DNA of 64,000 nt from Calditrichaceae bacterium (lineage in GTDB: Bacteria; Calditrichota; Calditrichia; Calditrichales; JBFXGD01). Within the stretch, counting starts at the first letter, position 1; each line of letters begins with the position of its first letter. Below, piece after piece: positions 27,462-58,900 of this stretch. The stretch spans positions 160,001 through 224,000 of the forward strand of contig JBFXLE010000003.1 of the NCBI GenBank assembly GCA_050173015.1, in the 5' to 3' direction. The notes beneath the pieces were generated by a model. That model saw nothing but the letters and a program-made list of their open reading frames with translations, was not told the DNA's origin and made no database searches. Made by a program: the position numbers and the translations under genes.

Positions 27462-28310
27462 TCATAAAAATTTTAGGGTTAACATTTTATATATCAGTTT
27501 TGCCGCGAAAAAATCAGGATGAATGACGCCGGCCTTCGGACTAAGTTCAACCACATCAAATCCAACCACATTTTTTTGTTTAAACACATGTGTCAAAAAT
27601 TCCACCGTTTCGTACCACAAAAATCCGCCCGGCTCCGGAGTCCCTGTTGACGGCATGATAGATGGATCAAAATAATCCACATCTATTGTAATGAATACAT
27701 TTTCATTTAAGCGGTCAATAATATCATCACTCAGACCGCTTTTCCGCAGTGAATGAGCATAAAATGTATTTATTTTATTTTCCTTTATAAATTGCGCTTC
27801 TTCGATGCACTGCGAGCGAATACCCACCTGAACGATATCCTTATTCAGGTCATAAATCCTCCGCATAACGCTGGCGTGCGAATAAGGTGTTCCTTCATAG
27901 GACTCTCTCAGATCAGAATGCGCATCAAACTGCAATACACTTAGATGATCATACTTTTCGTGAAACGCGCGATAGATGGGGTAACTTACTGAATGTTCAC
28001 CTCCCAGGCCGACGGGAAACTTGCCATCTGCAAGTACACGCCTGAATTCTCTGGTGATGGTATCAAAATCATCTTCCGGGTTATTCCTAAAATGGAGAGC
28101 CGGTGCTGTGTGCACACCAGACCTATACATCTCACGATCATATTCTTCATCATATAGTTCAACGTATGCGGAAGCATCAATAATCGCCTGAGGGCCTAGT
28201 TTTGTGCCTTGCCCGTAACTTGTGGTATGCTCAAACGGCACCGGGATCACAACTGCGCGGGCCGAATTATAATCAATATACGGTGATTCTATACCCAAAA
28301 AATCTTTCAT
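27462..28310 (-). CDS. speB: Agmatinase
   Basis: GGEHS, DAHSD, D.D.FDPS, TGTPEPGG motifs; adjacent to an arginine decarboxylase. Confidence 0.93.
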   Translation of the reverse strand: MKDFLGIESPYIDYNSARAVVIPVPFEHTTSYGQGTKLGPQAIIDASAYVELYDEEYDREMYRSGVHTAPALHFRNNPEDDFDTITREFRRVLADGKFPVGLGGEHSVSYPIYRAFHEKYDHLSVLQFDAHSDLRESYEGTPYSHASVMRRIYDLNKDIVQVGIRSQCIEEAQFIKENKINTFYAHSLRKSGLSDDIIDRLNENVFITIDVDYFDPSIMPSTGTPEPGGFLWYETVEFLTHVFKQKNVVGFDVVELSPKAGVIHPDFFAAKLIYKMLTLKFL

Positions 28311-28340
28311 CTAAAACATTCCCTCGGTTTCTTCAAAATT

Positions 28341-28383
28341 AAAAAAAATCCCGGTTAGGCGGAATGCCTATGGATCCGGGATT
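28341..28383 (-). terminator. Terminator-like hairpin between the arginine decarboxylase gene and speB
   Basis: AUCCCGG-(bulge)-UAGGC-loop-GCCUA-ACCGGGAU followed by a U tract. Confidence 0.65.
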
Positions 28384-28445
28384 GTAGATTCAATAAGCGA
28401 TGCAATTTAACTATATCCCCAAAAGATGCTTCACGAACCGGTTAT

Positions 28446-28991
28446 TTAGGGAAGCAAAACAGCCGCGGTAAATACGGTCGTCCATAAACCATTTTCATCA
28501 CCATGCGAGCATTGCGTCATGTTCGATGTCTGCACAATCTTGTCTGAAATTTGCCAGATTTGTCTTTTTTCGTCCCAACTTGCTTCGGGATCAAATTCCA
28601 CTCCCAAAATCGTCGCCAGCATCTCTGCCGCCAGATCTTCCGCATAATCACCGGCCTTTTTTTCCACTTCACCAAAACTATGATGTTCACTAAGATATCC
28701 GTACGCGGTGACATCTTTCGGTATAGCTACTCCGATTGAAGCGGCAAGAAGCCGATTAGGCTCATTTGTCGCGTTTCTGCTGTAAACAGCGTGTACAATC
28801 TGCCCGGCGGTCATTTCTTTTAATCCTTCTTCCCGCTCGATTATTTCACAACCTGCCGGATAAATACTCGAAACAGCGACCAGGTTAAATGGCGCGAGAC
28901 CTGCATTTCTTAAAGCCATTTCAAAACTAGTTAATTGCTCCCGGCTTTTGCCGACCCCCTTCGTAAAGAAAATTTTTCTTGGAATATACAA
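28446..28991 (-). CDS. pdaD: Pyruvoyl-dependent arginine decarboxylase
   Basis: SFEMALRNAG...NLV.VSSI.P (Ser-Ser autocleavage site), GYLSEHH. Confidence 0.92.
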   Translation of the reverse strand: MYIPRKIFFTKGVGKSREQLTSFEMALRNAGLAPFNLVAVSSIYPAGCEIIEREEGLKEMTAGQIVHAVYSRNATNEPNRLLAASIGVAIPKDVTAYGYLSEHHSFGEVEKKAGDYAEDLAAEMLATILGVEFDPEASWDEKRQIWQISDKIVQTSNMTQCSHGDENGLWTTVFTAAVLLP

Positions 28992-29967: not shown

Positions 29968-31263
29968 TCAGATTACCACTTTTTTATAGGTGACCTTTTC
30001 ATCAACTCTCTGGAATAACGCAAAACCCGCCACAAAAAACAACAAAACAGAAAGAACCGCTATTCTCTGACTTCCTGTGGTGGTGGAAATGATACCAAAG
30101 AGCAGTGGACCCAGAATAGACGAAAATTTCCCCGTCAACGCGTAGAATCCATAAAATTCCGCTTCCATTCCTTCAGGGATCAGAATACCCATCAGTGCCC
30201 GGCTGGCTGACTGTGATGAACCCATGGCTATACCCGCGATCAATCCAACCGCATAAAATGAGAGTTGATCATAGGAGAAAAATGCGCCGACAGAGACCCC
30301 CATCCACATAAATAATGTGAGATTGATGGTCTTCTTGGGACCAAGTTTATCTGTAAGAAAGCCAAATACATAGGCACCTGAAATTGCCGAGAATTGAATT
30401 ATCGCAAAAAATGTTATTATTTCAACCATCGAAAATCCGAGTGTATCTTTCGCAAAAATCCCGCCAAAGTAAATAACAGTATTAACCCCGTCTATATAGA
30501 TAAAATAGGCAATTAAAAACTTTACAATCTCCGGAAATTCCCTGATCATCTTTAGAGTTTTACGGAATCTTTTATAACCTTCCTTTACATAGCTGTTTAC
30601 CTGAACCGATATATTGTATTTTTTTTCGGTAACCATAAAATAAAACGGTGTGGAAAACACAAGAAAAAAAAGCCCGGCCCAGAGAAATGTCGGCCGCATA
30701 AGTGATAAATCATCCGCGACAAATGCCATGTTTGCATAAGGCAGCGCGATAAGCAGAGACAATAAAGAACCGATATATCCGAAGGCAAATCCGTAACCGG
30801 ATATTTTTCCGATATTGTCTGGTTTTGAGATCTGTGGTAAGAATCCGTTATAAAAAACAATGGCGCCTTCAAAACCGATATTTCCGACGACAAAAAGAAA
30901 TAGCCCCTGCCAAACCATTCCAGGCTCAAGAAAAGTCAGCATAATGGTGCTGGCGATACAAAACATGGAATAAACAAATAAAAAATATTTTTTCCGGCTG
31001 TTAAAATCGGCGATCGCCCCAAGCAATGGCGAACTTACAGCAACTATAAACATCGAAATAGCGCCGCCAAGCCCCCAGTATAAATCTCCCGGATTCCGCT
31101 CTATACCAAAAAAAGATATTGTTTGCCCCGAAACAATATACTGTTTGAAATATACCGCATATACTACCGTCACAACGATAACGCTGAAAGAAGTATTTGC
31201 AAAATCGTACAGTGTCCATGCAAATATTTCTTTTTTATCCTTTTTTTTCTGATCGCGGGACAA
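29968..31263 (-). CDS. MFS transporter (UMF1/ATG22-like)
   Basis: W.LYDFAN, SPLLGAIAD, SQSASRAL; about 12 TM segments. Confidence 0.9.
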   Translation of the reverse strand: MSRDQKKKDKKEIFAWTLYDFANTSFSVIVVTVVYAVYFKQYIVSGQTISFFGIERNPGDLYWGLGGAISMFIVAVSSPLLGAIADFNSRKKYFLFVYSMFCIASTIMLTFLEPGMVWQGLFLFVVGNIGFEGAIVFYNGFLPQISKPDNIGKISGYGFAFGYIGSLLSLLIALPYANMAFVADDLSLMRPTFLWAGLFFLVFSTPFYFMVTEKKYNISVQVNSYVKEGYKRFRKTLKMIREFPEIVKFLIAYFIYIDGVNTVIYFGGIFAKDTLGFSMVEIITFFAIIQFSAISGAYVFGFLTDKLGPKKTINLTLFMWMGVSVGAFFSYDQLSFYAVGLIAGIAMGSSQSASRALMGILIPEGMEAEFYGFYALTGKFSSILGPLLFGIISTTTGSQRIAVLSVLLFFVAGFALFQRVDEKVTYKKVVI

Positions 31264-31305: not shown

Positions 31306-31339
31306 AAAAAAAAACCTTCTCTTATCAATAGAGAAGGTT
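31306..31339 (-). terminator. Intrinsic terminator after mglA
   Basis: AACCTTCTCT/AGAGAAGGTT stem plus U tract. Confidence 0.75.
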
Positions 31340-31379: not shown

Positions 31380-31964
31380 TTAGAGTTGTGTCTGTACGTT
31401 CTGAACAACCAGATTAATCACAGATTTCAGAGTATTGAAAACACCGTCGCCTTTTACCGCAACCCCCTCGAAATGAGGCACCCCAAAAAAATTAAGTCTT
31501 TTTTGCAAAACTTCCACAGACTCCACGCCCGGCAAGTCACGTTTATTATATTGTATTACCCATGGAAAATTCTCAAGTGTCTGCCCGTCCTGTTTGATAT
31601 TGCTTTCAAGATCCAGCAGCGTCTCAATATTGGCTTCCATCCGATGCGGTTGTGAATCGGCAACGAATACGATTCCGTCAACTCCATTTAGAATTACTTT
31701 ACGGCTCGAAGCGTAATAAACCTGTCCCGGAACAGTGTATAAGTTGAATTTAGGTTTTTTGCCTTTGATCCGACCGACTTCGATCTGCATAAAATCAAAG
31801 AATATGGTACGATCTTCTTTCGTTTTCAATGACACAAGCTCCCCGGTAAGCGACGGATCGAGCTTCGTGTGAATATACTCAAGATTCGTTGTTTTGCCGC
31901 TCATTCCCGGACCGTAATAGACGATTTTTAGATTTATTTCCTGTAAAGCCCAATTTATAAACAT
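31380..31964 (-). CDS. mglA: MglA-family small GTPase
   Basis: KIVYYGPGMSGKTTNL, DRTIFFDF, TVPGQVYY, NKRD motifs. Confidence 0.95.
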   Translation of the reverse strand: MFINWALQEINLKIVYYGPGMSGKTTNLEYIHTKLDPSLTGELVSLKTKEDRTIFFDFMQIEVGRIKGKKPKFNLYTVPGQVYYASSRKVILNGVDGIVFVADSQPHRMEANIETLLDLESNIKQDGQTLENFPWVIQYNKRDLPGVESVEVLQKRLNFFGVPHFEGVAVKGDGVFNTLKSVINLVVQNVQTQL

Positions 31965-32000
31965 TCTCCATCCTCGCGACTTTTAACCGTTTATGCCCTA

Positions 32001-32513
32001 TTATTTAAAAGTATCATCCAGCGCATCACCCAGGAGGGTGCTAAAATCTGAATCGATAATATTTGAATCTTCAGAATCATCTCCGGATTGATCTTCCAGC
32101 ATTGAAATAAGATCTTCAATCGCTTTTTTGGTATAAATTCGAATCAATCCCAATGTCACGCTTACATCGAATACGACAACCAGGAAAAAGTTATCACCGA
32201 CATTGGAAAGATACACATTTCTTTTTTCCCCCTCATGAAAAAGCAGTTTAAATTTCGCTTCTTCACCTACTAATTTAGCCATTTCAGATGTTGCGGCAAA
32301 ATCACTCGCGGCAAGGGCGGAAAGCACAGTCGTATTCATATCTTCCGTGTTTCCACGCTGGCTTATCAACTGACCGCTCATATCCGCAAATAATATCGCT
32401 GATGCTTTAGTTTTGTTCGCAAGCTCAGACAATACCTTTGTGATACCGTCATATTGTTTACCGTTTAATATGACCTGCCGGCTTCCATCTTTGAGTTTTC
32501 TTATTTGTACCAT
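32001..32513 (-). CDS. mglB: MglB roadblock/LC7 protein (putative GAP)
   Basis: D.SGQLI...LSALAASDFAATSEMA...LFHEGEK...TLGLIR; directly upstream of mglA. Confidence 0.9.
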   Translation of the reverse strand: MVQIRKLKDGSRQVILNGKQYDGITKVLSELANKTKASAILFADMSGQLISQRGNTEDMNTTVLSALAASDFAATSEMAKLVGEEAKFKLLFHEGEKRNVYLSNVGDNFFLVVVFDVSVTLGLIRIYTKKAIEDLISMLEDQSGDDSEDSNIIDSDFSTLLGDALDDTFK

Positions 32514-32533
32514 AAAATTTCCCTCACTCTTAT

Positions 32534-33292
32534 TTAAATACGCAAGGTTTGACGTTTTTTGAGACGATCTAAGGCAATTTTCACACTTTCCCGCAATCTT
32601 TCTAACGCCTCACCCAGGCTTTGTATTTCATCATTTGTTTTTACAAAGATTTTCTCATCAAGATTTCCCTGGCTGATATCGTCAGCTTTCCTTGTTAGAT
32701 ATAAGATAGGCTTAATTATCCGATTTGCAAGAAATATTACAATAACAATCCCTATAAAAGTTATACTCAATATTGTAAGGATTACAATAAAAATTGTTGT
32801 CCTGACCGTCTCGTCAACATATGCCTTTTTCATTCCGACACGAATATAACCCAAATAGCCATCCTGAACCGGACCCGTTATATCATAACATGTTAAGTCA
32901 TTGTCCTGCAATGTAATTAGCTCAGGCAGTTCATCGACCGTTCGTCCTTCCAGACTCTTGTTTTTCAGTACTTCGGGAACCTGCCCGTTATATGTATCTG
33001 CTAAGATACGTCCTTCGCTGTCATGAATCAATATGTATTCAACACTTTCAAAATTTAAATCACCCGTAATCAGGTGCCTTAAACCAATCTCATCCTCCGC
33101 CAGGATAAGTTCCGCGGAAAAGCTCGACAGGTTAACGGCTATCGTTCTGCCGCGTTCAATTAATTCTTTTTCAAGGCTTTCACTCACGGTCTTATTTACG
33201 ATGAAAACGATGAGAAGCCCCAGCAATAAATTACTGATGATCAAAATACTGCTTATTTTCCATTTTAAGCTGATAAATTTCACTTTACTCAA
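32534..33292 (-). CDS. Two-TM sensor-HAMP protein without an output domain
   Basis: TM, periplasmic domain, TM, HAMP (IKPI..L...NDEIQSLGEAL); ends shortly after the HAMP. Confidence 0.8.
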   Translation of the reverse strand: MSKVKFISLKWKISSILIISNLLLGLLIVFIVNKTVSESLEKELIERGRTIAVNLSSFSAELILAEDEIGLRHLITGDLNFESVEYILIHDSEGRILADTYNGQVPEVLKNKSLEGRTVDELPELITLQDNDLTCYDITGPVQDGYLGYIRVGMKKAYVDETVRTTIFIVILTILSITFIGIVIVIFLANRIIKPILYLTRKADDISQGNLDEKIFVKTNDEIQSLGEALERLRESVKIALDRLKKRQTLRI

Positions 33293-33794
33293 GTCCTTTT
33301 TTGATATAGTTTAGCATGACACTTTGAAATTTTATTTTTTTCTCGCCATCATTAATTTCATCGCTGATCAATTCAATCAGATCAGGTATTCGCTCCGCCA
33401 TAAACTTATCCGTACCTTCACCCATTTCAATGAGCGTGTCTTCAATAAGGAACGGCGCTACCGGCCCTATTACCGCCATTAATTCTTTTTCAAGATTTTC
33501 AAAAAACTCATGATTCACCAATTTGGTTTGTGGCTTTTCAGTCGATTGTATTTCAATCAGACCTTTTTCAAGTAATCCGATAAACAGACCAATCGCCTCT
33601 TCCTCCGTCAAAGCAAGGACCTGCGCGATATCATCAAGGCTTTTATTCCCGTCAACCTGGGTAATTACTGCCCACTCCGCAGACCTTAATGTAACATCGG
33701 TCGGTGATTTTGAACCCGTCAGCCCGAATATGACGTGCGAATGAGGAATAATGTCTTTGTAATCTTTTTTATCCACAGGTAAAATCCATTTCAA
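33285..33794 (-). CDS. Winged-helix plus helical-domain protein of the Mgl cluster
   Basis: EW.VI.QVDG..S..DIA..L...GLLEKGLI and LMAVIGPVAPFLIED, resembling C-terminal modules of DUF4388 proteins. Confidence 0.6.
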   Translation of the reverse strand: MKWILPVDKKDYKDIIPHSHVIFGLTGSKSPTDVTLRSAEWAVITQVDGNKSLDDIAQVLALTEEEAIGLFIGLLEKGLIEIQSTEKPQTKLVNHEFFENLEKELMAVIGPVAPFLIEDTLIEMGEGTDKFMAERIPDLIELISDEINDGEKKIKFQSVMLNYIKKGLE

Positions 33795-33809
33795 AATAGC
33801 TGAAAAATT

Positions 33810-34247
33810 TTATCTCAGCTTGTTGATAAGCCGGACTTCGTTTTCGTCCAGCTCTCCTTTATTTATATGATATGTTTTATCTGCCGTCTGATCCTTTATC
33901 GCTTTTGTCAGCTTTTTATCCTCAAGAAGGTTTGCAAGAGCCACATTTAATGTAATACGTAACAGAGATAAAACCTTGGGAGTTTTGCAAAGAATTACCA
34001 ATAACATATTGTTGGTATATCTGCAAATCACATACTGATCCTGCCAGTAAAATTCGATCTCGGTAATAGTCAGACTGCGTAAATGATAACCGGAAAGAAT
34101 CCTGAGAACATGCACTGTTAGTTGTTCAAGAACGGCATCCTTTTCGTCAATTCCTAATTTTTCAATGACATTTCCGCGTCCCGAAGCGATATATACGCCT
34201 CGGACACCATCGATATTCAAAATTTCCTGCAGCCATCTGTCAGTCAT
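33810..34247 (-). CDS. Roadblock/longin-like small protein
   Basis: LQEILNIDGVRGVYIASGRG N-terminus and LSLLRITLN C-terminal helix. Confidence 0.55.
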   Translation of the reverse strand: MTDRWLQEILNIDGVRGVYIASGRGNVIEKLGIDEKDAVLEQLTVHVLRILSGYHLRSLTITEIEFYWQDQYVICRYTNNMLLVILCKTPKVLSLLRITLNVALANLLEDKKLTKAIKDQTADKTYHINKGELDENEVRLINKLR

Positions 34248-34292
34248 CTGATCATTCCTTAATTTCTGCAGATTTCAACCATCCCTGAATTA

Positions 34293-35306
34293 TCAGGCAA
34301 TCTCTGTGCTGAAATATTCTCTTAATTGTATTTTATCAATTTTTTCCGAATACTCCTCGACGAAAGCGTGGATTAGTAAATCCATAAAGGAGTACTTTGA
34401 TGTTTTATCGTCAATTAATGGCTTAAGTTGAGTAAAAACATTCGCAATCATCGATCCAAAATCAATTTTTGTAATTGAGTCAAGCCCTGTGAATCGATTT
34501 TGCCCGTAATGAACATCATTCACATTCAGTGTTTTGCAGCTTTCTTCCCAAAGCGCTGAAAAAAGAGCTTCCATATCTTCATTTTCGTTTAATGAATCAA
34601 TCGCGTTAACAATACGATTTTTGAGCTCAAGCACAATTTCTGATATTTCAAGCAACTCAAGCAGCTCGGAAAATTTCTGACTTTCCTCATATGAACGCAG
34701 CGCGTCACAACTTTCAAGCGAAATATCGGTGCTAATCGTTTCTGCAATCTGTAATATTTTTTTGAACAAACGGGCCTGTCCTCTTTCAAAGACCTGTTTA
34801 CCCGCATTGTTATTCAGGACCGCGGCAGCTATCCCGCCGTTCATCAAATAAATTGAAGCCCTTGCCTGCTGATCACCAAATATGATATTTATAAATCCAT
34901 AATCTGTTTTCCTGGATGATTCCTGGATATACTTTTCCAGGGCATTACTGTTTAGATTTTGTTTCTCGTCAAGTATTTTATTCTGGAACATGGCCAGAAG
35001 GAAAGGGACCAGCTCATAATCAACTAAAAAAGTGCTAATGGATCCGTCTTTCTCTCTAAATCGGTTATAAATACCTAATAATGCCTGTATCCCCGATTCA
35101 ATCTGCTTCCCTTTTTGTTCATATGCCTGAACAATATTTCCTGTATCAAATATTAAAAAACCTTCATAACCCCAAAATTCCAGCTTCAAATACCCTGAAA
35201 AACGGGATTCCTTGAGATCTTTGATCAGCAACCACATATGTGTATACTGTGTTGCCAGGTTCTTATGCTGCGGTTCCCCCGTTATGACTAGCACATTTGT
35301 ATTCAT
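34293..35306 (-). CDS. Tandem DUF4388/DUF2226-like protein
   Basis: Two repeats: FSGYLKL...GFLIFDTGNIVQA and YGFINI...SIYLMNGGIAAA. Confidence 0.55.
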   Translation of the reverse strand: MNTNVLVITGEPQHKNLATQYTHMWLLIKDLKESRFSGYLKLEFWGYEGFLIFDTGNIVQAYEQKGKQIESGIQALLGIYNRFREKDGSISTFLVDYELVPFLLAMFQNKILDEKQNLNSNALEKYIQESSRKTDYGFINIIFGDQQARASIYLMNGGIAAAVLNNNAGKQVFERGQARLFKKILQIAETISTDISLESCDALRSYEESQKFSELLELLEISEIVLELKNRIVNAIDSLNENEDMEALFSALWEESCKTLNVNDVHYGQNRFTGLDSITKIDFGSMIANVFTQLKPLIDDKTSKYSFMDLLIHAFVEEYSEKIDKIQLREYFSTEIA

Positions 35307-35950
35307 TAACCCATTGCCTGTTTTATCAGTGGTAAGATGACATCCAGCTTTGTTTTATCGTTTAAAACCATGATGATTAAGAATTGATTATAGGAAGTGA
35401 CAACATATCTCAAAGAACCAACAAGAACACTTACGAATTCCGGCTCGGTTACACTCATAATATCAGCAATTTTACCGGCTTCAAGCATCGAAAAGGCATG
35501 AAGCGCTTCATTATCCTTATCAGAATCTTGTTCGCTTTTCGCAATCAGAGTGCCATCCCGTTCAATCATTTTTACAGACTGAACCCCTTTTACCGTAAGC
35601 AGCCTTTCAAACAACCGGTGGAATCTATGCTCCGGCGCCTCATCGGCATTGTCAAGCTGATGCAAACCTTCCAGCAACAAACTGTTCCAGCTTGTTTTAA
35701 TCGTCTTTACCGGGGCGTGTACATCGCTTTCCACTTTAAACGTTCCGTCATACAGCGTCAACAACCTGTAAACCGCTTTCTCACCTATCTCCGGCTCAAA
35801 TTCCGCGTGAACAACCTGACCGTTTTCAAAATAAATAAATCCAAACTTGCCGCCACGCTCTATTGTCAATTTAGCCGTGTTGCGTTCCATGCAATTTAAC
35901 TGGATTAAACTCGGAAGTTTTAGATCCTTTAAGTTTCCTACTAATGCCAT
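35306..35950 (-). CDS. DUF4388 (PatA-N-like) domain plus roadblock-like domain
   Basis: MALVGNLKDLKLPSLIQL...G.IYFENGQVVHA...LLLEG; C-terminal VKGVQSV..IERDG. Confidence 0.8.
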   Translation of the reverse strand: MALVGNLKDLKLPSLIQLNCMERNTAKLTIERGGKFGFIYFENGQVVHAEFEPEIGEKAVYRLLTLYDGTFKVESDVHAPVKTIKTSWNSLLLEGLHQLDNADEAPEHRFHRLFERLLTVKGVQSVKMIERDGTLIAKSEQDSDKDNEALHAFSMLEAGKIADIMSVTEPEFVSVLVGSLRYVVTSYNQFLIIMVLNDKTKLDVILPLIKQAMG

Positions 35951-35951
35951 T

Positions 35952-36317
35952 TTATCCCAGTATGTCTAGTACAATTTTTTTAAATTCTTTCATTTCAAAT
36001 GGTTTTTCTATGTAAAACCTGGCGCCAAGCTTTAATACTTCATCACGTCTGTCACTCGATCCATATGCTGTCATGATCACAACTTCCGTTCGCGGAAAGT
36101 CATTTTTGACTCTTTTTAGCAAGTCGATACCACTCATGCCGGGCATTAAAATATCGGTTATGATCAGATCAAATGGATTATCCTGAATTTTTGTGAGGGC
36201 CTCATCACCTGAATTGGCAGTGATGACTTCGTAGTCATTATCAGATAGTATAAAACTCTGATAGAGACTAAATGTTAAAGTCTCTTCATCATCAACAATG
36301 AGTAGCCTTTTTGCCAT
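35952..36317 (-). CDS. Single-domain response regulator
   Basis: IVDDE, TDILMP (phospho-acceptor Asp), MTAY, EKPF motifs. Confidence 0.95.
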   Translation of the reverse strand: MAKRLLIVDDEETLTFSLYQSFILSDNDYEVITANSGDEALTKIQDNPFDLIITDILMPGMSGIDLLKRVKNDFPRTEVVIMTAYGSSDRRDEVLKLGARFYIEKPFEMKEFKKIVLDILG

Positions 36318-36319
36318 GC

Positions 36320-37567
36320 TTAAACCTGTTCCGTTTTATTATTGAGTACTACCGGCAAATAAATACTAAAAACCGCTCCTTCGCCCTGCCGGGATTGAAC
36401 TTCGATCTTGCCATTATTTTCTTCCAGCAACCGGGTAGAAATGGACAGTCCCAGTCCCACGCCATCCGCTTTTGTTGTATAGAACGGATTAAATATTTTT
36501 TCATGTTTTTCGACAGGGATACCCGGTCCGGAATCTTTAATCCTGACATACACCACGGTACGTCCCTGCTGATTTTCACTTAACCGGATTCCATCGGTTT
36601 CACCGACTTCCACCTGAATCTCACCGCCTTTTGGCATGGCTTCGGCCGCATTGATAAACAAATTCAGCACAACCTGTTCAATCTGACTTTCATCTGCAAA
36701 AATTTTATGCTTATTTTCCGAAAAATTCGTTCTGTACTGTATTTTATGTTTTTTAAATCTGCTCGCCATTAAAAGGTAAACACCGTCAATAATATTTTCA
36801 ATATGATGAAAGTCCTGCTTTGGCTTGTTTGGCCTTGCAAAATTAAAAAACCTTTTCAGCAGCTCATTACTTCTGTCAATTTCCTTTACAATTCTCGTCA
36901 CTAACTGTGTTCTGAAGTTATCCTCATTATAACTATCTTCGAGCACTTGAGCGGAAGCTTTAATTCCTGCGAGCGGATTTCTTATTTCATGGGCAATTCC
37001 CGCCGCCAATTCTCCGAGTGTGGCCAGCCGGTCCATGCGCTCAATTTGTTTCCGTAAGGTAGTAATATAGGTGATATCACGGAATATGAAGATTATCCCA
37101 TCAAAAGTGTGATCATCCGATTGTTTTAACAACGTCGTGCTAAAGCCGATGGGTATTAACTTTCCGTTACCCGAAACAAGCTCCGCCTCCTTACTCTCAA
37201 ACATGGCTTTTTCATCGACAATTTCCCGGATGATCCGGCGGATCAAATCTTCGTCATCAAAAAGAAGCTCGACCTTTTTGCCAAGAATTTCATCACTGCC
37301 ATACTCCAGTATTTCAAGCGCGGCCCGATTCAGAAATGTGATGTATCCTTTCATGTCTATCGTGAATATACCGCTGGATATATTTTGAGTGATACCTTTG
37401 TGAAACCGGAAAATTTTCTCCAGATCGCTGTACCTTTTCAGCAATAAGTCATATTTTTTTTTGAGAGTTTCGTGAACCTCGCTATTCGGCTGATTGCCAT
37501 CCAATTCCGCGAGAATTTTGTTAATACGGGAAGCTGCTTCTTTTTTACTCTCAAAACGTTTGCTCAT
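36320..37567 (-). CDS. Cytoplasmic PAS-domain sensor histidine kinase
   Basis: PAS domain; H-box AHEIRNPL; NLFINA, DSGPG, F.PFYTTK, GLGL motifs. Confidence 0.95.
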   Translation of the reverse strand: MSKRFESKKEAASRINKILAELDGNQPNSEVHETLKKKYDLLLKRYSDLEKIFRFHKGITQNISSGIFTIDMKGYITFLNRAALEILEYGSDEILGKKVELLFDDEDLIRRIIREIVDEKAMFESKEAELVSGNGKLIPIGFSTTLLKQSDDHTFDGIIFIFRDITYITTLRKQIERMDRLATLGELAAGIAHEIRNPLAGIKASAQVLEDSYNEDNFRTQLVTRIVKEIDRSNELLKRFFNFARPNKPKQDFHHIENIIDGVYLLMASRFKKHKIQYRTNFSENKHKIFADESQIEQVVLNLFINAAEAMPKGGEIQVEVGETDGIRLSENQQGRTVVYVRIKDSGPGIPVEKHEKIFNPFYTTKADGVGLGLSISTRLLEENNGKIEVQSRQGEGAVFSIYLPVVLNNKTEQV

Positions 37568-37677
37568 TCGGCTATCTTTATTGCTGACTCTGAAAAATCT
37601 ATGGGATATGTGACTATTTTTTATGGAATTTAAAACTTTATTTTAAAGATTTCATCGCTTGATTGCAACTGTTTTAT

Positions 37678-40125
37678 TCAACCAAGCAGGGTTGGATCAA
37701 CATCAACAACAACTTGAATACCGGATTGCCGGTTATTATAGAATGGAGTCATCAACTTCTGTAAAATTTTTTTTGTCCGGTTTCCCGATGGATCTGTCTG
37801 AGGATTTAATTTAATATTGACCTGCCACTTATAGAGGTTATTCACTCTGGGGATGACAGAAGGAGCCGGACCTATCACTTCACAATATCCGCGGGCGTCT
37901 CTGCGGGTCCGTCCCGCAATTTTACGGGCTGTCTCGATGGCATCATTCATTTTTTCGGCAGAAACAAGAACTTGAATGATCTTGTAGAATGGAGGATATT
38001 TAAAATTTTTGCGATGCTCTAATTCTTCATTATAAAATCCGATGAAATCGTGGTTGCGGGCATGCTGAATCGCATAATGACTGTAAACATAGGTTTGAAT
38101 CACCACTTCACCCGGCTTTTTCCCTCTACCCGATCGGCCCGAAACCTGTGTAAGCAGGTGAAAAATCCTCTCAGATGCCCGAAAATCCGGCAGCGAAAGC
38201 CCTACGTCGGCGGATATGACGCCGACCAATGTCACATTGGCGAAATCAAGCCCTTTCGCGATCATCTGTGTTCCGAGTAAAACATCGGCATCACCGTTAG
38301 CAAATGATTTTAGAATGGTGTCGTGCATATTTTTGCCCCGCGTCGTATCCTGATCCATACGCAGAATTCTTATTTCCGGGTAGCATTTTTGAAGCTCCTG
38401 CTGGATTCTTTGGGTACCGATACCTTTGTATTTTATCTGTTCACCACCGCATGATGGACAATCCGTATAGGCAGCATGATGATAGCCGCATAAATGACAT
38501 TGAAGGGATTCGTTGAAGGAATGATAAGTGAGGCTCACTTCACAATTTGGACAGGCCGCAATAAATCCGCATTCCGTACACTGTAAAAATGATGAATAGC
38601 CTCGTTTGTTTTGTAAAATTAAAATTTGTTCTTTCTTATGCAGTCTTTCGTCTATTTTATCCAATAATACTCTGGAAAAAAGATTGGTTTCTCTCTCCTG
38701 GCGGCCCTTTTTTTGACGCATATCCACAATATGCACTTCAGGCAATTTGATATTTTCGACCCGGTTTTGGATCCGGAGCAGTCTGAACTTGTTTTTTGAC
38801 ACATTAAAATAAGATTCCATGCTGGGTGTTGCCGATCCCAGGATTATTAACGCCTGATTCATTCGCGCCCAGTAAATGGCCACATCCCGGGCATGGTAGC
38901 GCGGCGTGATATCACTCTGCTTATAACTTGATTCGTGCTCTTCATCAACGACTATCAAACCGATATTTTTTAATGGCGCGAATAAGGCCGAGCGCGGCCC
39001 CACCACAATTTTAACTCGATCCTCATAGCAAGCCATCCATGCGTCAAATCGTTCCCCGACCGACATTTTACTGTGAAAAACGGCAATTTGATCTGAAAAA
39101 ATATTCTTAAACCTGCTTACCGTTTGAGGCGTCAGTGATATTTCCGGAATTAGAATTATGGCGGTCTGTCCGCGGGAAATAACCTTTTTTAGCACTTCGA
39201 TATAGACCTGAGTTTTCCCGCTCCCCGTAATTCCGTGCAACAAAAAAGTAGCGAATTGACCGGTTTCCATTTGCAGCGCCACCTGTCGGACAGCATTCTC
39301 CTGCTCATCCGTAAGGACGATTTCCTTAATATCTTCATGATAATCAAATTCCGGCGCGCGTTCAACCTGCATATCGGAAACATCACATATACCCAGGTTT
39401 TTCATTTTTTGAAGCGTGCCCGTAGCCATTTTAGTTTTTTTTAAAAACTCAGACATCAGAATATCTTTACCGGCATTGTCGAGCAGATAATCATCTACTT
39501 CCGGACGTCGCTTCACATATTTCAGGAAATCATCAAAATTTGTTTTTATTGTAACATAATCAACCGGAACGGATACAAATTTTCTGGTTAATATTCCAAC
39601 CCTTTGCTGCTTTCTTTCCACGTCTCGTTTTACAAGCCCCTTTTCTTCAAGAACTTTAAGATTGTTGTAAAAGGATCCCTGTCCATTTTTTTTCCTGTAA
39701 TAGTCTTTTGATTTGCCGGGATTGGATCCGATTAACAGGTACAGATCTCTTTGGCGCTCTGATAATTTCTTATCAAAATTTACCTCAGAAATACTAATAT
39801 ATTCCTTGTCTTCCGTATCTATTCCTTTGGGCAATGCCATCTGGACGGTCTGCCCCAGGCCGGAAATATAATAATCGGAGATCCATTTCATCAGCTCGAG
39901 CATACGTTCCGAGATAAGCGGCTTATCATCAAGTATATCGATAATGTCTTTTACCGAACTGTATTCAGATTTATTTGTTAAGACGGTAACAACACCGGTG
40001 ATATTTCGTTTTCCAAAAGGCGCGAGGACACGCATACCGGGCTCTATCCGATTCAGCTCCTCCGGAATCCTGTAAGTAAAAGAATGATTTATCGGTAAGT
40101 TAAAAACGACTTCTGCAAATGGCAT
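37678..40125 (-). CDS. priA: Primosomal protein N'
   Basis: GITGSGKT, DEEHE, four CxxC zinc sites, GTQMIAKGLDF. Confidence 0.97.
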   Translation of the reverse strand: MPFAEVVFNLPINHSFTYRIPEELNRIEPGMRVLAPFGKRNITGVVTVLTNKSEYSSVKDIIDILDDKPLISERMLELMKWISDYYISGLGQTVQMALPKGIDTEDKEYISISEVNFDKKLSERQRDLYLLIGSNPGKSKDYYRKKNGQGSFYNNLKVLEEKGLVKRDVERKQQRVGILTRKFVSVPVDYVTIKTNFDDFLKYVKRRPEVDDYLLDNAGKDILMSEFLKKTKMATGTLQKMKNLGICDVSDMQVERAPEFDYHEDIKEIVLTDEQENAVRQVALQMETGQFATFLLHGITGSGKTQVYIEVLKKVISRGQTAIILIPEISLTPQTVSRFKNIFSDQIAVFHSKMSVGERFDAWMACYEDRVKIVVGPRSALFAPLKNIGLIVVDEEHESSYKQSDITPRYHARDVAIYWARMNQALIILGSATPSMESYFNVSKNKFRLLRIQNRVENIKLPEVHIVDMRQKKGRQERETNLFSRVLLDKIDERLHKKEQILILQNKRGYSSFLQCTECGFIAACPNCEVSLTYHSFNESLQCHLCGYHHAAYTDCPSCGGEQIKYKGIGTQRIQQELQKCYPEIRILRMDQDTTRGKNMHDTILKSFANGDADVLLGTQMIAKGLDFANVTLVGVISADVGLSLPDFRASERIFHLLTQVSGRSGRGKKPGEVVIQTYVYSHYAIQHARNHDFIGFYNEELEHRKNFKYPPFYKIIQVLVSAEKMNDAIETARKIAGRTRRDARGYCEVIGPAPSVIPRVNNLYKWQVNIKLNPQTDPSGNRTKKILQKLMTPFYNNRQSGIQVVVDVDPTLLG

Positions 40126-52965: not shown

Positions 52966-55900
52966 CTAATCCCTGATCGCTATATTTACATTCATTCCAA
53001 ATTCACTATGTGTATAGGTACCTGAAATTTTGTTTTCAGTAGCTCCGGTTTCGAAGAATAAACTGCCCTGTACTTTGGTATTAAAGCGGTAGCTTGCCGA
53101 AGGTCTCAGCTTCCAGGACTTATTATTTTGTTTCTCTTCAAAATTATCCTGATCGAATTGTTTTTGGAATGTTGTATTTTGTGAACGATCAAAAGTCAGA
53201 CTAAAATTCACTTCATTTTTAAAAGATTTCGATTTGAACGGCCAGATCGGTATCCTGAAGCCGGCTGTTTTCGCGTAACTCATTGTGATTGTAAGCGAGC
53301 TTGTTTCCGTTTTTGTCGCGCCGGCGCCGGAATTATAAGAGTAACTTGTACTTTCGGTACGTCTGATATTTCCGGAGACTCCCCATACCGTGCGGATGTT
53401 AAATCCGACTAATGGCTGCCAGTTACTGCTGAACGATTGAGACGTAGGCACAAAACTGCCGTCCAGCTTAAGAGATTTGTTTTCTGTGTATTTCCCGGAA
53501 TGTCCGTGATCAACAGTCACGGATTGAGCAAATGTCGGGAAAAACAGATATTTCTCCACGCCTGACACCTGCACATTCCAATCCGGTACAAACCGGCGTA
53601 AATCGGCATTTAATCCTTTAAAATCTGTAAGTGGATCATCACCCAGCGCCAGGAATGAAATGGACCGGTTTCCCGACCGGTTATTTCCGTAATCTGAACT
53701 TGATTCCGATTCTGAAAAATCATGATTGAAGGTGGCCTTTATATTCTTAGCAAAATTATAACTTGTGGATGTTCTGATAGAGCGGGTCTGACTAATGCTG
53801 GGGCCTATTAAATTAATTCCGTCATCAATCAAGCTTGAATCCTGGCCGACTCCGGTGCTGGTCGTAAATCCGAACTGATACTGCCAGTCAGGTATATCAT
53901 TCAGATAAGGATTTGAGATATTATCATCTATGGAGTAGTTCATCTGGATGCTCTGCCACGAATCAAAAAACTTGTACAGAAGAATCAATGGATTCGGGAA
54001 ACTTTTTTTGTCATCTTCATCTTTTTTATCTTTTTCGGGATCAGTCTGGGATTGCGGGGTGGGCCGGCCTCTGCCCGCGGTTGTCCTTTTCTTTGCCTTG
54101 GGAGTGTAAATGCTATTCACCAGCGTGCTTGGATTCAGGGTCAGTCCAATACGCTTTCCTACTCTGCTGGTACTTTGCTTGTATTGATAATTATTCGTCA
54201 GAGAATAACTAAAATTCGAATTGTACGAAAAATCAGTTTTCAGCCATTTGATGAGGTTCGGTCTGTAGTCCGCGCCAAAACTTTGATTAATATCGGTATC
54301 AAGCCCGAAATTAAATTTTGTGAAAATCTCTTTAAACATATCTTCGTGTTTCAATCCGACATAATCAGCATCCGCCCGATGTGATCTAGAATAGGTAAAA
54401 TTCAGGCTGTTAAACATCCGATATCCCGAATTAACCGATCTGGTTGAAGAGGTATTTATGGTCCTCTTGTTTTCTGCGGAGGATCTGCGGAGAAGGTCTG
54501 TTTCCACATCCGAAATATCCAGCGACAAATTAATATCATTTGGCGAATAATAGAGTTTTTCATCACTCAGTTTACCAAGAAGCGGAATTCTTTGTGTAAA
54601 CTTAAATGGAGACACAAAGTTATTCTTTCCAAACGGGATTTTATATCTAATTGACTCTTTATACTGCTCCGAGTCATTAAATTTTGTTTCCCAGTCACTG
54701 CTGTGTTTTTTTGAATAATCAAAATCAAGCACGAGTTCATCAACTGTATAGCGATAATACCAGGATTTCGATTTTGATCTTTTACGGATAGTCGTGCCGA
54801 CGCCAAGAACCTCGCTGTATGAGACCTGATCATCCAATTCCGGAGGCAGATCGCGAACACCGAACAAAGATTTCAATTTTTTGTCAAAGGAGTCATTCTT
54901 ATACCCGGTAAGAATATCCGTTCTCGGGAAGTACTTAGGCACATTTCTGCTGTAAGAGGCGCGCGCGTCGATCGGTATGGAGATGTCCCATGCGTCCGGC
55001 AGAAATTTATCCAGGGTGAACGTTCCTGAATAATTTTGTCTTTCGAGGGTATTGCCCCCTCCGAACTGAGTACCGATATCATGATAGTCCGCGTCTTTAC
55101 TTTCCCATTCAGCATTAAATCTTAAAAGATCCGCTAATTTAATATCCGTCTTCAGACGCAAAGCTGTGGCGTTTTCCCTGCGTACCTCAGAGAGACGCAT
55201 TTCATCGAGCCAAATCTCACCTGTAAAACCGAAGGAGTCCTTATTTTTGACACCTATTATAAAATACCTGATCGTGTTAAGGCTCGGAGCGCCCTTTACT
55301 TTATAATAACCTCCCGGAGATGAGCCAACCAGAGCATACTTATTTTCGCTGAATTTTACCTGTGAAAGTTCATCGAGATCGATATCCAGTTGATTCAGCG
55401 TGCTCCATCCCCTGTAAACATCCTGACCGTATTCATAATAGTTGTTGACATCCGATCCGAATCGCAAATAGAACCTGATATTTGAGCTGTCTCCATCATC
55501 CGGATTTAACGGTAGACTGCGATCGCCGTGAATAAACATTTTTAGCCGTTTGTAATTAACGAGCTCCATGGCGCTGTACAATGTTTTTTTTGCTTCAGCC
55601 ACATAGCCGGCCGGGAAATCGGCAAATTTGAGCACAAGCGATTGCTCTTTTGAAATCGCGTCGGTGATGCGGTCACGCTCCCCTGCCACTCCCGGGGGTG
55701 ATGTGTATGGTTCAGGACCACCAGGTATTTCATCAACATTCTCTTCGGTATTATATGTGGCAAGCGTAAAGACGGAATCTGACTTTACAAAAGTCGCGGA
55801 ATCATTTTCGGCGATACCTGTTTCTTCCCACTCATTGCCGACAAAATCAAAAGTCGCTATAAGGATCCTTGTTCTTTCTGCCGGAATATCGCTAACCCAG

Positions 55901-58900
55901 AGGCGCGTGTAAAAAATTTGCTGAAAATCCGGATCGGGATTACCGATTTTCCTCGTAAAATCTTTGAGAGGTATTCTGAATTGCCGCCAGCCTTTTTCAG
56001 TCGCGCCCGCAACCCATCCTTTTGCCTTCAGATCATTCGGATCTAAGGAAAAGGTATATTCAAAATAATCATTAAACAGATTGAGCTGGCCGTCGCCATC
56101 CAGGTCTTCTGTATCAGGATATCTCGCGCCCTGAGCATTACCGTTTCCTTCCGTTCCGTTAATGCCGTCATAAAGGACGCCATCGAAAACATTAGTCGCG
56201 CCGGTTCTTGGTTCATTCCAATTATCAAAGGGATCATCTCCCGTCAAACCGTCCTTTATACCGTCAAGACCGATATCTTCCCCGTCATCCAGCAATCCGT
56301 TATTATTGCGATCTTCTGTATTCAGCCCACCCCGGCTGAACTCGTTTCTTATCGTAGAGCCTTTTTGATACCAGTCTTCAGAAATACGCCCGATATCAAT
56401 ATTTATCGTGCCTTCTGTTCCCTGAACCCACAATTCGATATATTTTGTTTTTTGCTGATCGGCAAAACTGGCCGTCGTACGCATCACCCCCGCCCACGCG
56501 CTATCCGGATCGCTGGCCGAATCACGCCAGTATTCTAATCCAAGCACATCGGTTGTCTGTCCCGTTTGCGAGTTGACATCCCGGTCGGGCCAGATGTCCT
56601 GAATGGCGACCTGAGTGTACGGATTAAACCAGACAAGCCGAGACCGGGCATTATTCACAACCGTATCTATCTGTGTGACACCTTCGCCCAAATTGGGTAA
56701 AACCACCGGCGGGCTCGCCATTGTCCATGTCTTATAACGGATTCCGAGCGTTGTAGTCCGCTTGCTTGCTTCGAAATCGTCAATATAGGCGACACCATCT
56801 TTATCGCCGGTACTCTCGTTATTAAGAGTATTCGGATCTGGCAATACCTGAGCAAACTCGGTCTCTATATTAACATATGAGTCTTCATTCGTTTCAACAA
56901 GCGGAATAGCATCCACCATTTTTGTCAAAAAACGAGGCCGGAATTTAAACGCCGCGTTGATATCCCAGACCAGGTTTCTGAAAGGTTCCTGACCTACACG
57001 AACCCGCTGATCAATGGTCGATTTATTTAAGTACAGCCCTGTAAATCCTATAAATGAGTCATCCCAAAAACGATATTCAGCGCGTCCTCCGAGAATGGTC
57101 TTTTTATCCAATTGAAACAGGTTTGCGCGTTCATATTTTATTTCTATATTTGAGCTGCTGCGCTTAGCTTCATCCGAAAGCAGAGTTAGCTGACCACTGA
57201 AATAATCGATCATATAATCCATGTCCCTTTGCAGCGATCGCCCATTTAGCGTGACAACTTCACTGCCCTCCAGCACATAAAAACCAAGATCATAAGTTGA
57301 TCTTGTACTCTTGGAGGTAACAATCATTTCAAACTTACTTTGCGTAAGCAGTTCCTGTGTATTCGTATAGCTCGTATTGTATATGTCAACTTTATATTTT
57401 TCAGGAAGAGATTCAACTTTAAACGGACTTCCTTCATCCGGATTGTATGGTTTTAGTGACGGGAAAATAAGGACACCGTCAGCCGGATATGTCGTATTCG
57501 GATTCCAATCGGCTTTCTCATCACCGCCTTCAATCGAATTACCGTTTTCATCAGCCACATCCAGTCCCATCAGGTTCAGAAAGGAACGGTCGATTCCTTC
57601 CGGATAGGCTTCCTGATTACCGGTTACATTGTACTGTATTCTCAGATCAAAGCCTTCACGTTGTATATTGCTTCCCCCAAGAGAATAGACATTGCGCATC
57701 ATAAGCGGCCAGGTATCCGCGTAAACATCTGTAGGCTGCATTGCCCGGGGTTTAATCATTTTCAGGATAACAGACTGACTTGTGTCCGCAAGATCCTCGT
57801 TAAGGGTTCCTACCTTCAGACCATTAGAAGTGGCATAGGCCACCGCGAGTATATCATTTGATTCGACCCCCTGGTTAAGAGTAAAATACCCCCTGTATTT
57901 ATCGAAAGTATAGTCCTTATCTGGGTCAAGACGTTTAAAATATCCCTTATCTGTCCTGCCGTCCACTACCTGAATCGTATCTGTATTCGCGTTTAGATAT
58001 TCATTGGGATTCAGGACAGCCCAGCCGCTTCGGGCATCATTATCGGAAAGGGCGGTCGATTTATAAATATCAAGCTGGCGAAGATCTGTCCCGCTTATAT
58101 ACGTGAACGGTTCATTCCCGTTAAATCCCTTTTCAAACTGCTCCAAATATGATTTATCAACAAAAAAGTATCTGTTTTTAATAAACTCATAATCTTTGAT
58201 CGTAGTTTTGGATTCACTCGCGTTTCCCGATAATTTGAGTTCCTGCTGTTGACCTTTCTCGAGGGAAGCTATTGTCGTGACATAAAAGTTTCCGATTTTC
58301 AGATCGGCTTTCAGACCAAACAACCCCTTGTTTGAACCTCCAAAGATAACATATTTCGTGGAAGGCAGAGATAAAGAAACATTTCCGGCCTCTATTTTTT
58401 GAACTATTTCATCCTCATCACCGTCATACCGTAATTTGAGAGTGTTTTCGATATCTGTCACCGCTTCACTGTTCTGATCAACAGAAACCGTAACTTTTTC
58501 ACCGATTTTACCCTCGACCGTGAATTGTTGTGTCTGATTGAACTTGGGACTAAATGATGTTTTGTTCTCGGACGCGGAAGTTGCAGAACCTGATCTCTTT
58601 TCTGTTCTTCCGGAAAGATCGAATGTGATATTTCCGGTCACGCGCAAACCGATTCGGTCAGAACCGAATATTCTGGTAAAAGTTTTACTCCGGATTCTTA
58701 TGGGGATATCCAGTTTGATCGCTCCAAATTCCTGCTCAGTCTGTTGCCGGAATTTATTCAAAACGGTTTTTTTCCATTGTTCTCTGCGGTCAAACTCAAT
58801 TCTTAAGCGGACATAGGCATCCAAATCGATTACCGCCGGCAGATAAAACTCAACACCGTCCAATGCTTCCATTATCGAGATATACTCTGCCGTGGAATCC

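Follow-up and report, generated by a model that had tools for sequence, protein, structure and literature searches.

A conserved Calditrichota operon that may place an MglA/MglB GTPase switch under a HAMP-ending receptor and a two-component pair

The stretch of DNA analysed here (the window; 64,000 nt) lies on contig JBFXLE010000003.1 of a Calditrichaceae bacterium, whose draft genome of 4.34 Mb is 97.5% complete, and it contains an operon of nine genes, designated g1 to g9 in reading order, of which the last two encode MglB and the small GTPase MglA. To our knowledge, the way in which MglA-type polarity GTPases outside the myxobacteria receive their signals is largely unknown. In this operon a whole candidate input chain is written out in one piece; it is near-universal in one phylum, the Calditrichota, and recurs in part beside mglBA in a second. 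The reading favoured here, with modest confidence, is that a phylum-wide conserved operon puts a standard MglA/MglB pair under two inputs, one from a membrane receptor and one from a phosphorelay, which would be joined by adaptor proteins.

The nine open reading frames (ORFs) are encoded on the minus strand from 37567 to 31380, where they are co-oriented and tightly packed, the junctions between them ranging from an overlap of 8 nt to a gap of 45 nt. A terminator-like hairpin on the same strand (31313..31339; 10-bp stem, 7-nt loop, then TTTTTTT) is located just 3' of mglA. The first-pass annotation of the window had described nine co-oriented, packed genes closed by one terminator, and the ORF listing returns exactly the coordinates that it gave; its gene list and domain calls are borne out by Pfam, by the profiles of relatives and by the structure matches, and the two kinds of input gene that it named, a transmembrane HAMP protein and a kinase/receiver pair, are both confirmed by Pfam.

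Conservation was followed through 86 genomes of the phylum, from which 20 mglA loci were fetched so as to span eight families; this choice favoured long contigs and was not random. MglA itself is found in 84 of the 86 genomes at 83-98% identity. The order kinase, receiver, PATAN-Roadblock protein, DUF8082 protein, receptor, mglB, mglA is kept in 20/20 loci. The exceptions among these loci are that g5 was detected in 19, having been missed by phmmer in one, that g7 is split in one and that g6 is truncated in another. In a phylum-wide scan with a g6 profile, the tables of which were compared by hand, g6 lies 1.8-2.0 kb from mglA on the same contig in 80 of the 86 genomes; in four of the remaining six, contig ends fall between the two genes, one genome is without both genes, and one gave weak matches only. 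The variable ninth gene is g4, which occurs in 32/86 genomes, always about 3.3 kb upstream of mglA when both are on one contig. Since priA stands upstream in only 10/20 loci, the kinase gene is regarded as the first conserved gene of the operon. The conservation of the eight-gene core order in Calditrichota is far beyond chance. A check of the neighbourhood across phyla had been proposed with the first description, and the accessory genes are indeed found together with mglBA throughout the phylum and again in a second one. L045 (genome G044) and L046 (G042) show a g7 gene in two pieces, a shortened g6 and a priA broken up into several ORFs; these breaks would be either assembly indel errors, both being assemblies of low contig number, or the onset of decay.

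The switch itself is orthodox. MglA (g9; 31380..31964, minus strand; 194 aa) is a group-1 Ras-like GTPase, assigned by Pfam to the Arf/Ras-type class and present as a single copy in the window's genome. It matches M. xanthus MglA (6hjh) with an E-value of 3.5e-67 over residues 2-189 and the Thermus protein (3t12) with 8.1e-62. Its motifs comprise the P-loop GPGMSGKT, EDRTIFFDF with the Arg finger, and LYTVPGQV. The intrinsic Arg finger (DRTIFFDF) and the TVPGQ motif that had been claimed for it are thus both in the sequence, and the DRT and TVPGQ columns align with those of M. xanthus MglA; the Thr that replaces the usual Asp is named as an MglA feature in passages of PMC3000849. MglB (g8; 32001..32513, minus strand; 170 aa) is by homology a Roadblock-fold GTPase-activating protein (GAP) with a C-terminal helix. 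Its gene ends 36 nt upstream of mglA, and the two are paired in 20/20 loci. The protein matches Robl_LC7 in Pfam (1.2e-12) and M. xanthus MglB (6hjm) with 1.3e-23 over residues 11-169, through the acidic C-terminal helix; against the NCBIfam MglB model it scores 79.6 bits, which is under the cut-off of 200, so that it is not an equivalog by NCBI's bar.

Judged by these sequence matches, MglA and MglB are an orthodox pair of group 1 that closely resembles the proteins of Myxococcus and Thermus, with which it shares the intrinsic Arg finger, TVPGQ, an adjacent Roadblock GAP with a C-terminal helix, and strong full-length similarity. The earlier description of a "different" GTPase switch has therefore to be given up for these two proteins, which are standard group-1 by profile match. 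What differs is their surroundings. In Myxococcus, input comes via Frz, a chemosensory system, and the regulators are unlinked to mglBA according to passages of PMC4316618; compared with Myxococcus, the present operon adds a kinase and a receiver, the PATAN proteins, two further Roadblock domains, and a receptor without output together with its partner.

The receptor (g7; 32534..33292, minus strand; 252 aa) consists of a first transmembrane segment, a Cache-like periplasmic domain, a second transmembrane segment and a HAMP domain, and it has no output domain. Pfam places HAMP (2.8e-12) at residues 187-237 of 252 and gives a weak match to sCache_3_2 (2.5e-4); neither HisKA nor HATPase domains were found in the Pfam scan. 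Its relatives (alignment of n=18) likewise stop 6-15 residues past the HAMP helices. The best matches of the g7 profile in the PDB are to Af1503 of Archaeoglobus fulgidus (4gn0, 3.8e-13; 4cq4, 4.3e-12), other HAMP proteins following at 2.4e-7 or weaker. Passages of PMC4834066 describe Af1503-like receptors as having no effector, with HAMP as their sole cytosolic part, and report that the genes of such receptors are often coupled to those for Af1502-like proteins, which have an LGPx(x)A motif in common.

A candidate for such a partner is g6 (33285..33794, minus strand), which adjoins g7 in 20/20 Calditrichota loci, the two genes overlapping in 11. It is composed of an acidic winged helix and a C-terminal DUF8082 domain, the latter being read as STAC-like. 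The length of 169 aa is counted from a TTG start; the relatives and the Atlas record begin 6 residues later. A scan of g6 with a Pfam set that lacks PF26309 gave nothing above noise, and the DUF8082 (PF26309) label is taken from the precomputed annotation of relatives and from the Atlas assignment of residues 90-169. The AlphaFold2 model of g6, with a predicted local distance difference test (pLDDT) of 87.6, shows a winged helix followed by a helical bundle with helices at 95-123 (GP inside), 133-145 and 150-168. For residues 94-163 the best solved match is Af1502 (5a1q; Z 7.1, root-mean-square deviation 2.7 A, 68 residues aligned), and Foldseek gives the helical domain a TM score of 0.74 by target against the same structure; for the whole g6 model, no Foldseek match was found at E<=0.001. 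A profile of the DUF8082 domain built from 24 sequences of two phyla also has Af1502 (5a1q) as its top match among 177,635 PDB sequences, at a marginal E-value of 0.0087, and the alignment spans an invariant GP motif: G110 and P111 of g6 are invariant, and xGPxA is present in 24/24 sequences, the last position being A, S or G. In STAC domains, which are four-helix bundles, this motif lies between helices 1 and 2. As PATAN-ComFB fusions exist, ComFB was weighed as a candidate for the helical domain of g6; the matches listed for g6 include no ComFB protein, no search having been aimed at ComFB.

Co-folding of the g7 HAMP dimer with g6 reached a score of 0.56 as opposed to 0.09 for the best of 3 controls, with at least 93% of contacts agreeing between runs and a partner pLDDT of at least 74. 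The pass mark applied is met by 116/157 solved complexes and 2/215 mismatched pairs, and scores of up to 0.60 above the mark are given by 18/157 solved complexes and by both passing mismatches; the score counts as weak support. Because the marginal sequence and fold scores agree with the motif and the gene coupling, the g7/g6 pair looks like an extended bacterial Af1503/Af1502, homology to STAC being marginally supported. In both systems an effector-less receptor that ends in HAMP is accompanied by a tightly or translationally coupled neighbour gene for a small helical domain with a (L/I)GPxA motif, and the Archaeoglobus proteins are the closest solved structures to g7 and g6. The differences are that the helical domain of g6 carries an N-terminal winged helix, to which PATAN is added in other phyla, and that the order here is partner-then-receptor, within a small-GTPase operon and not a transporter operon.

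The winged helix of g6 could be taken for that of a DNA-binding transcription factor, in which case the receptor would act on gene expression and MglA/MglB would merely be co-transcribed. Such a function would fit the winged-helix fold of the N-terminal half, the weak matches of 8/19 relatives to HTH_47, and structural matches to MarR-type and other winged helices at Z ~7-9. It is, nevertheless, a very improbable explanation: the relatives of g6 are acidic, with a median isoelectric point of 5.04, 18/19 have a winged helix of net negative charge, and the recognition-helix position is acidic and non-conserved. From this charge, the winged helix is read as probably protein-binding and not DNA-binding. 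The top structural matches of residues 12-85 (window 33540-33761) are also protein-binding, namely the winged helices of GATOR1/SEA (8fw5_C, Z 9.3; 8adl_S, Z 9.0), a eukaryotic Roadblock/longin-based GTPase regulator; with generic MarR-type winged helices at about 7, this resemblance is a lead only.

A profile search with DUF8082 among 1.84 billion representatives returned 1,567 clusters at E<=0.001, in which two architectures predominate, one of about 160 aa as in g6 and one of about 263 aa that joins PATAN, winged helix and DUF8082. The latter three are fused in the single proteins P0151, P0162, P0166 and P0199. This draws attention to the PATAN proteins of the operon. The product of g3 (35306..35950, minus strand; 214 aa) contains a PATAN (DUF4388) domain with a Pfam E-value of 3.1e-23 (82.6 bits, cut-off 25), followed by a C-terminal Roadblock-like domain to which Pfam gives a weak Robl_LC7 match at 0.088; in a profile of relatives, residues 102-192 match the dynein light chain Roadblock 2b95 with 7.4e-5. 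The Roadblock-like protein g5 (33810..34247, minus strand; 145 aa) matches Robl_LC7 in Pfam at 0.037, and the profile of its relatives matches the solved Robl_LC7 protein 7f8m with 3.4e-6. By hhalign it is related to the C-terminal domain of g3 with a probability of 85% (E 6.5e-6).

The remaining accessory protein, g4 (34293..35306, minus strand; 337 aa), is read as a divergent protein with PATAN-like domains in tandem and a helical domain at the C-terminus. Its own Pfam match to DUF4388 (3.7e-5, 24.2 bits) is just below the 25-bit cut-off; in its family, 15/15 members match DUF4388 at E<=1, the best at 3.6e-7. In the AlphaFold2 model (pLDDT 82.6), a pair of similar alpha/beta domains (10-106 and 109-202) precedes the helical domain. 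The two halves align with the PATAN domain of g3 by hhalign at 2-4e-3 each, controls giving 0.05-0.5, and the internal repeat is also visible by BLASTP against an out-of-phylum homologue. Among solved structures the model has no match that rises above noise, the best in Foldseek being sliding clamps with a TM score of about 0.1, and VIA giving Z<=7.0. Altogether the operon encodes three Roadblock domains, those of MglB, of g5 and of the C-terminal part of g3, and three domains of the PATAN type, two of them in g4 and one in g3. Loss of the Roadblock and DUF4388/PATAN assignments had been named beforehand as a possible refutation; they held, as seen from 7f8m, 2b95, the hhalign results and the 15/15 relatives of g4. 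Proteins like g4 also match the archaeal DUF2226 weakly, in 2/15 relatives and in L090:4838-5917 (4.5e-5, 23.5 bits, cut-off 22), and the tandem-PATAN protein may have archaeal relatives. About ten PATAN regions are present in the window's genome, including receiver (REC)-PATAN proteins at C17:33686-34417 and C50:4244-5335. At G000:C2:133066-135285 (L055), two adjacent cyclic nucleotide (cNMP)-binding proteins are encoded, the first of which consists of cNMP, PATAN and receiver domains and the second of which has a weaker PATAN match.

The operon starts with what has the features of a classical two-component pair, a HisKA and HATPase kinase adjoining a receiver with an acceptor Asp. The soluble PAS histidine kinase g1 (36320..37567, minus strand; 415 aa) matches PAS_9 (5.2e-14), HisKA (3.2e-14) and HATPase_c (1.5e-25), the Pfam scan giving neither a HAMP nor a transmembrane match, and a homologue stands at the same position in 20/20 loci. 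The single-domain receiver g2 (35952..36317, minus strand; 121 aa) matches Response_reg with 3.1e-27; its phosphorylation-site residues, as read by eye, are the N-terminal DD, the D of ITDILMPG, the T of MTAYG and the K of EKP.

Outside the Calditrichota, the only named match in a word-based search was a protein of Thermodesulfatator autotrophicus. At its locus, a PATAN-winged helix-DUF8082 protein is followed directly by a Tll0287-like membrane protein with a weak HAMP match and no output domain; the mglA gene of this organism is found elsewhere in the genome. The phylum of Thermodesulfatator was sampled with 151 genomes, 26 of which have a DUF8082 match, and the 16 strongest loci were combined with the first one to give 17. 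A g7-like gene directly adjoins the DUF8082 gene in 13 of these and is one ORF away in 1 more. Adjacent g5-like Roadblock genes and separate g3-like PATAN genes are found in 7 loci each, a g4-like gene in 8, mglA (within ~7 kb) in 5 and mglB in 4. HAMP is the last domain in 11 of the 13 g7-like proteins that were scanned, and Cache-type matches also occur in 9.

Three of these loci (L094, L097 and L098) share the order mglB, mglA, a gene of unknown function, g3-like, g4-like, g5-like, g6-like, g7-like, in which the last five genes follow one another as in the window. Because the g4-like gene is found here in the same order, the nine-gene form with g4 is probably the older one and the eight-gene form a result of loss. 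In L099 and L100, one protein that combines REC and PATAN comes after the receptor; the L099 protein shares, in its receiver, 48% identity with g2 over 120 aa (E 4e-38) and, in its PATAN domain, 37% with that of g3 (E 2e-23). Among the present data, this fusion speaks most strongly for a possible input of the phosphorelay into the PATAN layer.

These data are combined in the following scenario. On one side, the periplasmic Cache-like domain of g7 would sense a ligand. Since no enzyme is attached to the HAMP domain of g7, signalling would be by direct contact, a conformational signal being passed from HAMP to the STAC-like four-helix domain of g6 as in Af1503/Af1502. The acidic winged helix of g6 would then dock onto the PATAN proteins, a step suggested by the fusion of PATAN to winged helix-DUF8082 in other phyla. 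On the other side, the soluble kinase g1 would phosphorylate the receiver g2, which would act on the PATAN domain of g3. The two inputs would converge where the Roadblock domains of g3 and g5, which recall Myxococcus MglC, pair with each other or with MglB in the way that MglC does. Such pairing would most likely change GAP access or the location of MglA and thereby set when and where MglA-GTP accumulates. A farther-reaching proposal, put forward tentatively, is that of a kinase-independent transmembrane route which runs from a HAMP-ending, Af1503-type receptor through a STAC-like winged-helix adaptor to PATAN/Roadblock scaffolds and on to MglA/MglB, where the scaffold would also integrate a phosphorelay via the receiver, and which would serve a polarity function independent of pili and flagella.

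The two-input model is limited because contact of the accessory proteins with MglA or MglB is a prediction from gene content, the single co-fold covering g6 and g7, and several observations weigh against it. The STAC assignment of g6 depends on the marginal E-value and on a Z-score in the range that helical bundles reach by chance, and a full-length g6 profile search of PDB sequences missed Af1502. In the second phylum, mglA is within ~7 kb in only 5/17 DUF8082 loci; because the other 12/17 have no mglA nearby, the receptor-adaptor cassette would therefore also work without an adjacent GTPase. The kinase/receiver pair is absent from most of the 17 out-of-phylum cassettes. Five Calditrichota genomes (G024, G027, G040, G042 and G044; 91-94% complete; loci L039, L035, L046 and L045 for four of them) carry the operon, with a PF00437/T2SSE ATPase in 0/5 and no flagellin found.

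From the missing kinases and the scarcity of nearby mglA one could argue for two or three unrelated units that share synteny and no functional coupling, the parts being the two-component pair, the adaptor/receptor cassette and mglBA. This is hardly to be expected, however, of an order that is fixed across eight families though its flanks vary and whose gene junctions are short or overlapping. REC-PATAN and PATAN-DUF8082 fusions, moreover, connect the units, and the g3-to-g7 block recurs beside mglBA in the second phylum.

It is also conceivable that g7 and g6 regulate solute transport and not MglA, their position in the operon reflecting shared regulation or history. According to passages of PMC4834066, STAC has been proposed as a regulator of solute transport, and transporters are enriched around Af1503-like receptors. 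In the window, an ATG22-like transporter gene of the major facilitator superfamily (MFS; 29968-31263, minus strand; Pfam 1.8e-62) lies directly downstream of mglA, and homologues follow mglA in 13/20 Calditrichota loci, distant families included. After the cassettes of the second phylum, a TRAP transporter (L088), DctP (L090) and two periplasmic binding proteins (L094) are found. The terminator-like hairpin, on the other hand, separates mglA from the MFS gene, and g6 and g7 are inside the operon, between the Roadblock genes and mglB, in 20/20 loci. In the relatives examined, DUF8082 is fused to PATAN and not to transporters, and no transporter was found beside the cassette in L092. A role in transport in place of control of MglA is, consequently, considered quite unlikely, and the coupling of g7 and g6 to the GTPase remains the preferred reading.

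No gene of the nine-gene operon resembles an effector of MglA-GTP, and the type IV pilus motor is the leading candidate where it is present. Passages of bioRxiv 2021.06.11.447907 report that PATAN-REC regulators bind PilB1 in Synechocystis, and passages of the same source and of PMC11580455 that MglA sorts pilus ATPases in M. xanthus. The window's genome, in which no flagellin was found, has a pilus cluster with a PilB-like protein of MshEN, T2SSE and receiver domains, a prepilin peptidase, PilC, pilins, PilO, a secretin and a PilT-like ATPase. A T2SSE ATPase occurs in 75/86 genomes of the phylum, and an MshEN and T2SSE ATPase follows the cassette in L097 and L098. The operon could, on these grounds, be a dedicated controller of type IV pili (twitching), in which PATAN and MglA-GTP would act on PilB- and PilT-like ATPases and set the piliated pole. 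Against such a dedicated role, which is rated as rather unlikely, stand the separate contig on which the pilus cluster lies, with no link to the operon, the wider occurrence of MglA (84/86) than of the ATPase, and the five operon-bearing genomes named above, in which MglA must have some other role; because these are without both T2SSE ATPase and flagellin, a pilus or flagellar output cannot be general, and the pilus motor cannot be the only output. The PilB-like ATPase at G000:C2:72764-74938 (L052:6765-8939), outside the window, has 724 aa and a C-terminal Response_reg after MshEN and T2SSE; full-length matches to it, including the receiver part, are present in many genomes of the phylum. Passages of the Caldithrix abyssi genome paper mention flagellar and pilus genes and not MglA.

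Concerning known systems, the operon had been compared to the actinobacterial conservon (CvnA-D), whose single operon likewise combines a HAMP membrane sensor and a Roadblock protein with an MglA-family GTPase and a small protein of unknown function. The analogy fails for the sensor and for the GTPase group, and identity with a conservon is rejected: CvnA is a membrane histidine kinase and g7 has no kinase, and CvnD is, according to passages of PMC4316618, a group-2 MglA without the Arg finger, the operon MglA being group-1. CvnC is DUF742, a relation of which to g6 is at most weakly indicated, by matches of 1/19 relatives of g6 (0.013) and of the distant relative P0186 (0.006). Cyanobacterial regulators of the PatA type (PixG, PixE) resemble the operon in the pairing of PATAN with a receiver, and there are homologues of g2 and g3 in the form of REC-PATAN fusions. 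In the operon itself, REC and PATAN have a gene each, one next to the other, and it is a Roadblock domain that is fused to PATAN. PatA has PATAN first, whereas REC is N-terminal in the fusions seen here.

Related gene arrangements are those of Wuichet and Sogaard-Andersen (2014; PMC4316618), passages of which state that group-1 MglA neighbourhoods vary widely, with PATAN as an occasional member. Entries of their Table S2 comprise MglA/MglB/PATAN arrangements with a PATAN protein beside group-1 mglA and mglB, among them the PATAN:MglB fusion Ctha_0398 of Chloroherpeton thalassium, which is Roadblock-fused like g3; these entries hold GTPase, MglB and PATAN genes only, and no receptor, DUF8082, kinase or receiver is noted in them. 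The name Caldithrix occurs neither in the main text nor in three supplementary files of that work, supplementary file 1 having been outside the search. A description of the present wiring was not found among the literature matches listed, nor was "DUF8082" (PF26309) found as a term in the literature searched. Of the first-pass claim that no characterised system has this composition, the part that concerns the whole wiring stands for the searched literature; the MglA-MglB-PATAN loci and the Af1503/Af1502-type pair are known. As far as can be judged from sequence, the parts of the operon are from known families and the wiring is undescribed.

The operon thereby suggests a way in which outside signals may reach a bacterial small GTPase. 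It offers six defined proteins as candidate modifiers of localisation, of GAP activity or of guanine nucleotide exchange factor activity, and it joins two literatures that have so far been unlinked, that on HAMP-STAC signalling in Af1503/Af1502 and that on polarity control by MglA, PATAN and Roadblock proteins. Its presence in genomes without pilus ATPases or flagellin points to a function of MglA beyond motility. If the proposed coupling is true, the orphan HAMP model Af1503 would gain a type of downstream pathway, and the cascade would be the first receptor-coupled small-GTPase cascade in bacteria.

Upstream of the operon, priA (37678-40125, minus strand; NCBIfam 880.8 bits, cut-off 813) is co-oriented with it and separated from g1 by a gap of 110 nt. 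Inside this gap is a promoter-like site (37640..37668, minus strand) with TTGCAA, 17 nt and TAAAAT (9/12); it is a consensus match only, and such sites are at least as frequent in shuffled sequence as in the region. Farther downstream, beyond the MFS gene, a gene for a pyruvoyl-dependent arginine decarboxylase adjoins one of the arginase family (agmatinase-like) at 27462-28991 (minus strand), an ordinary polyamine pair. Elsewhere in the window, an ORF of 2,066 aa occupies 52966-59166 (minus strand).

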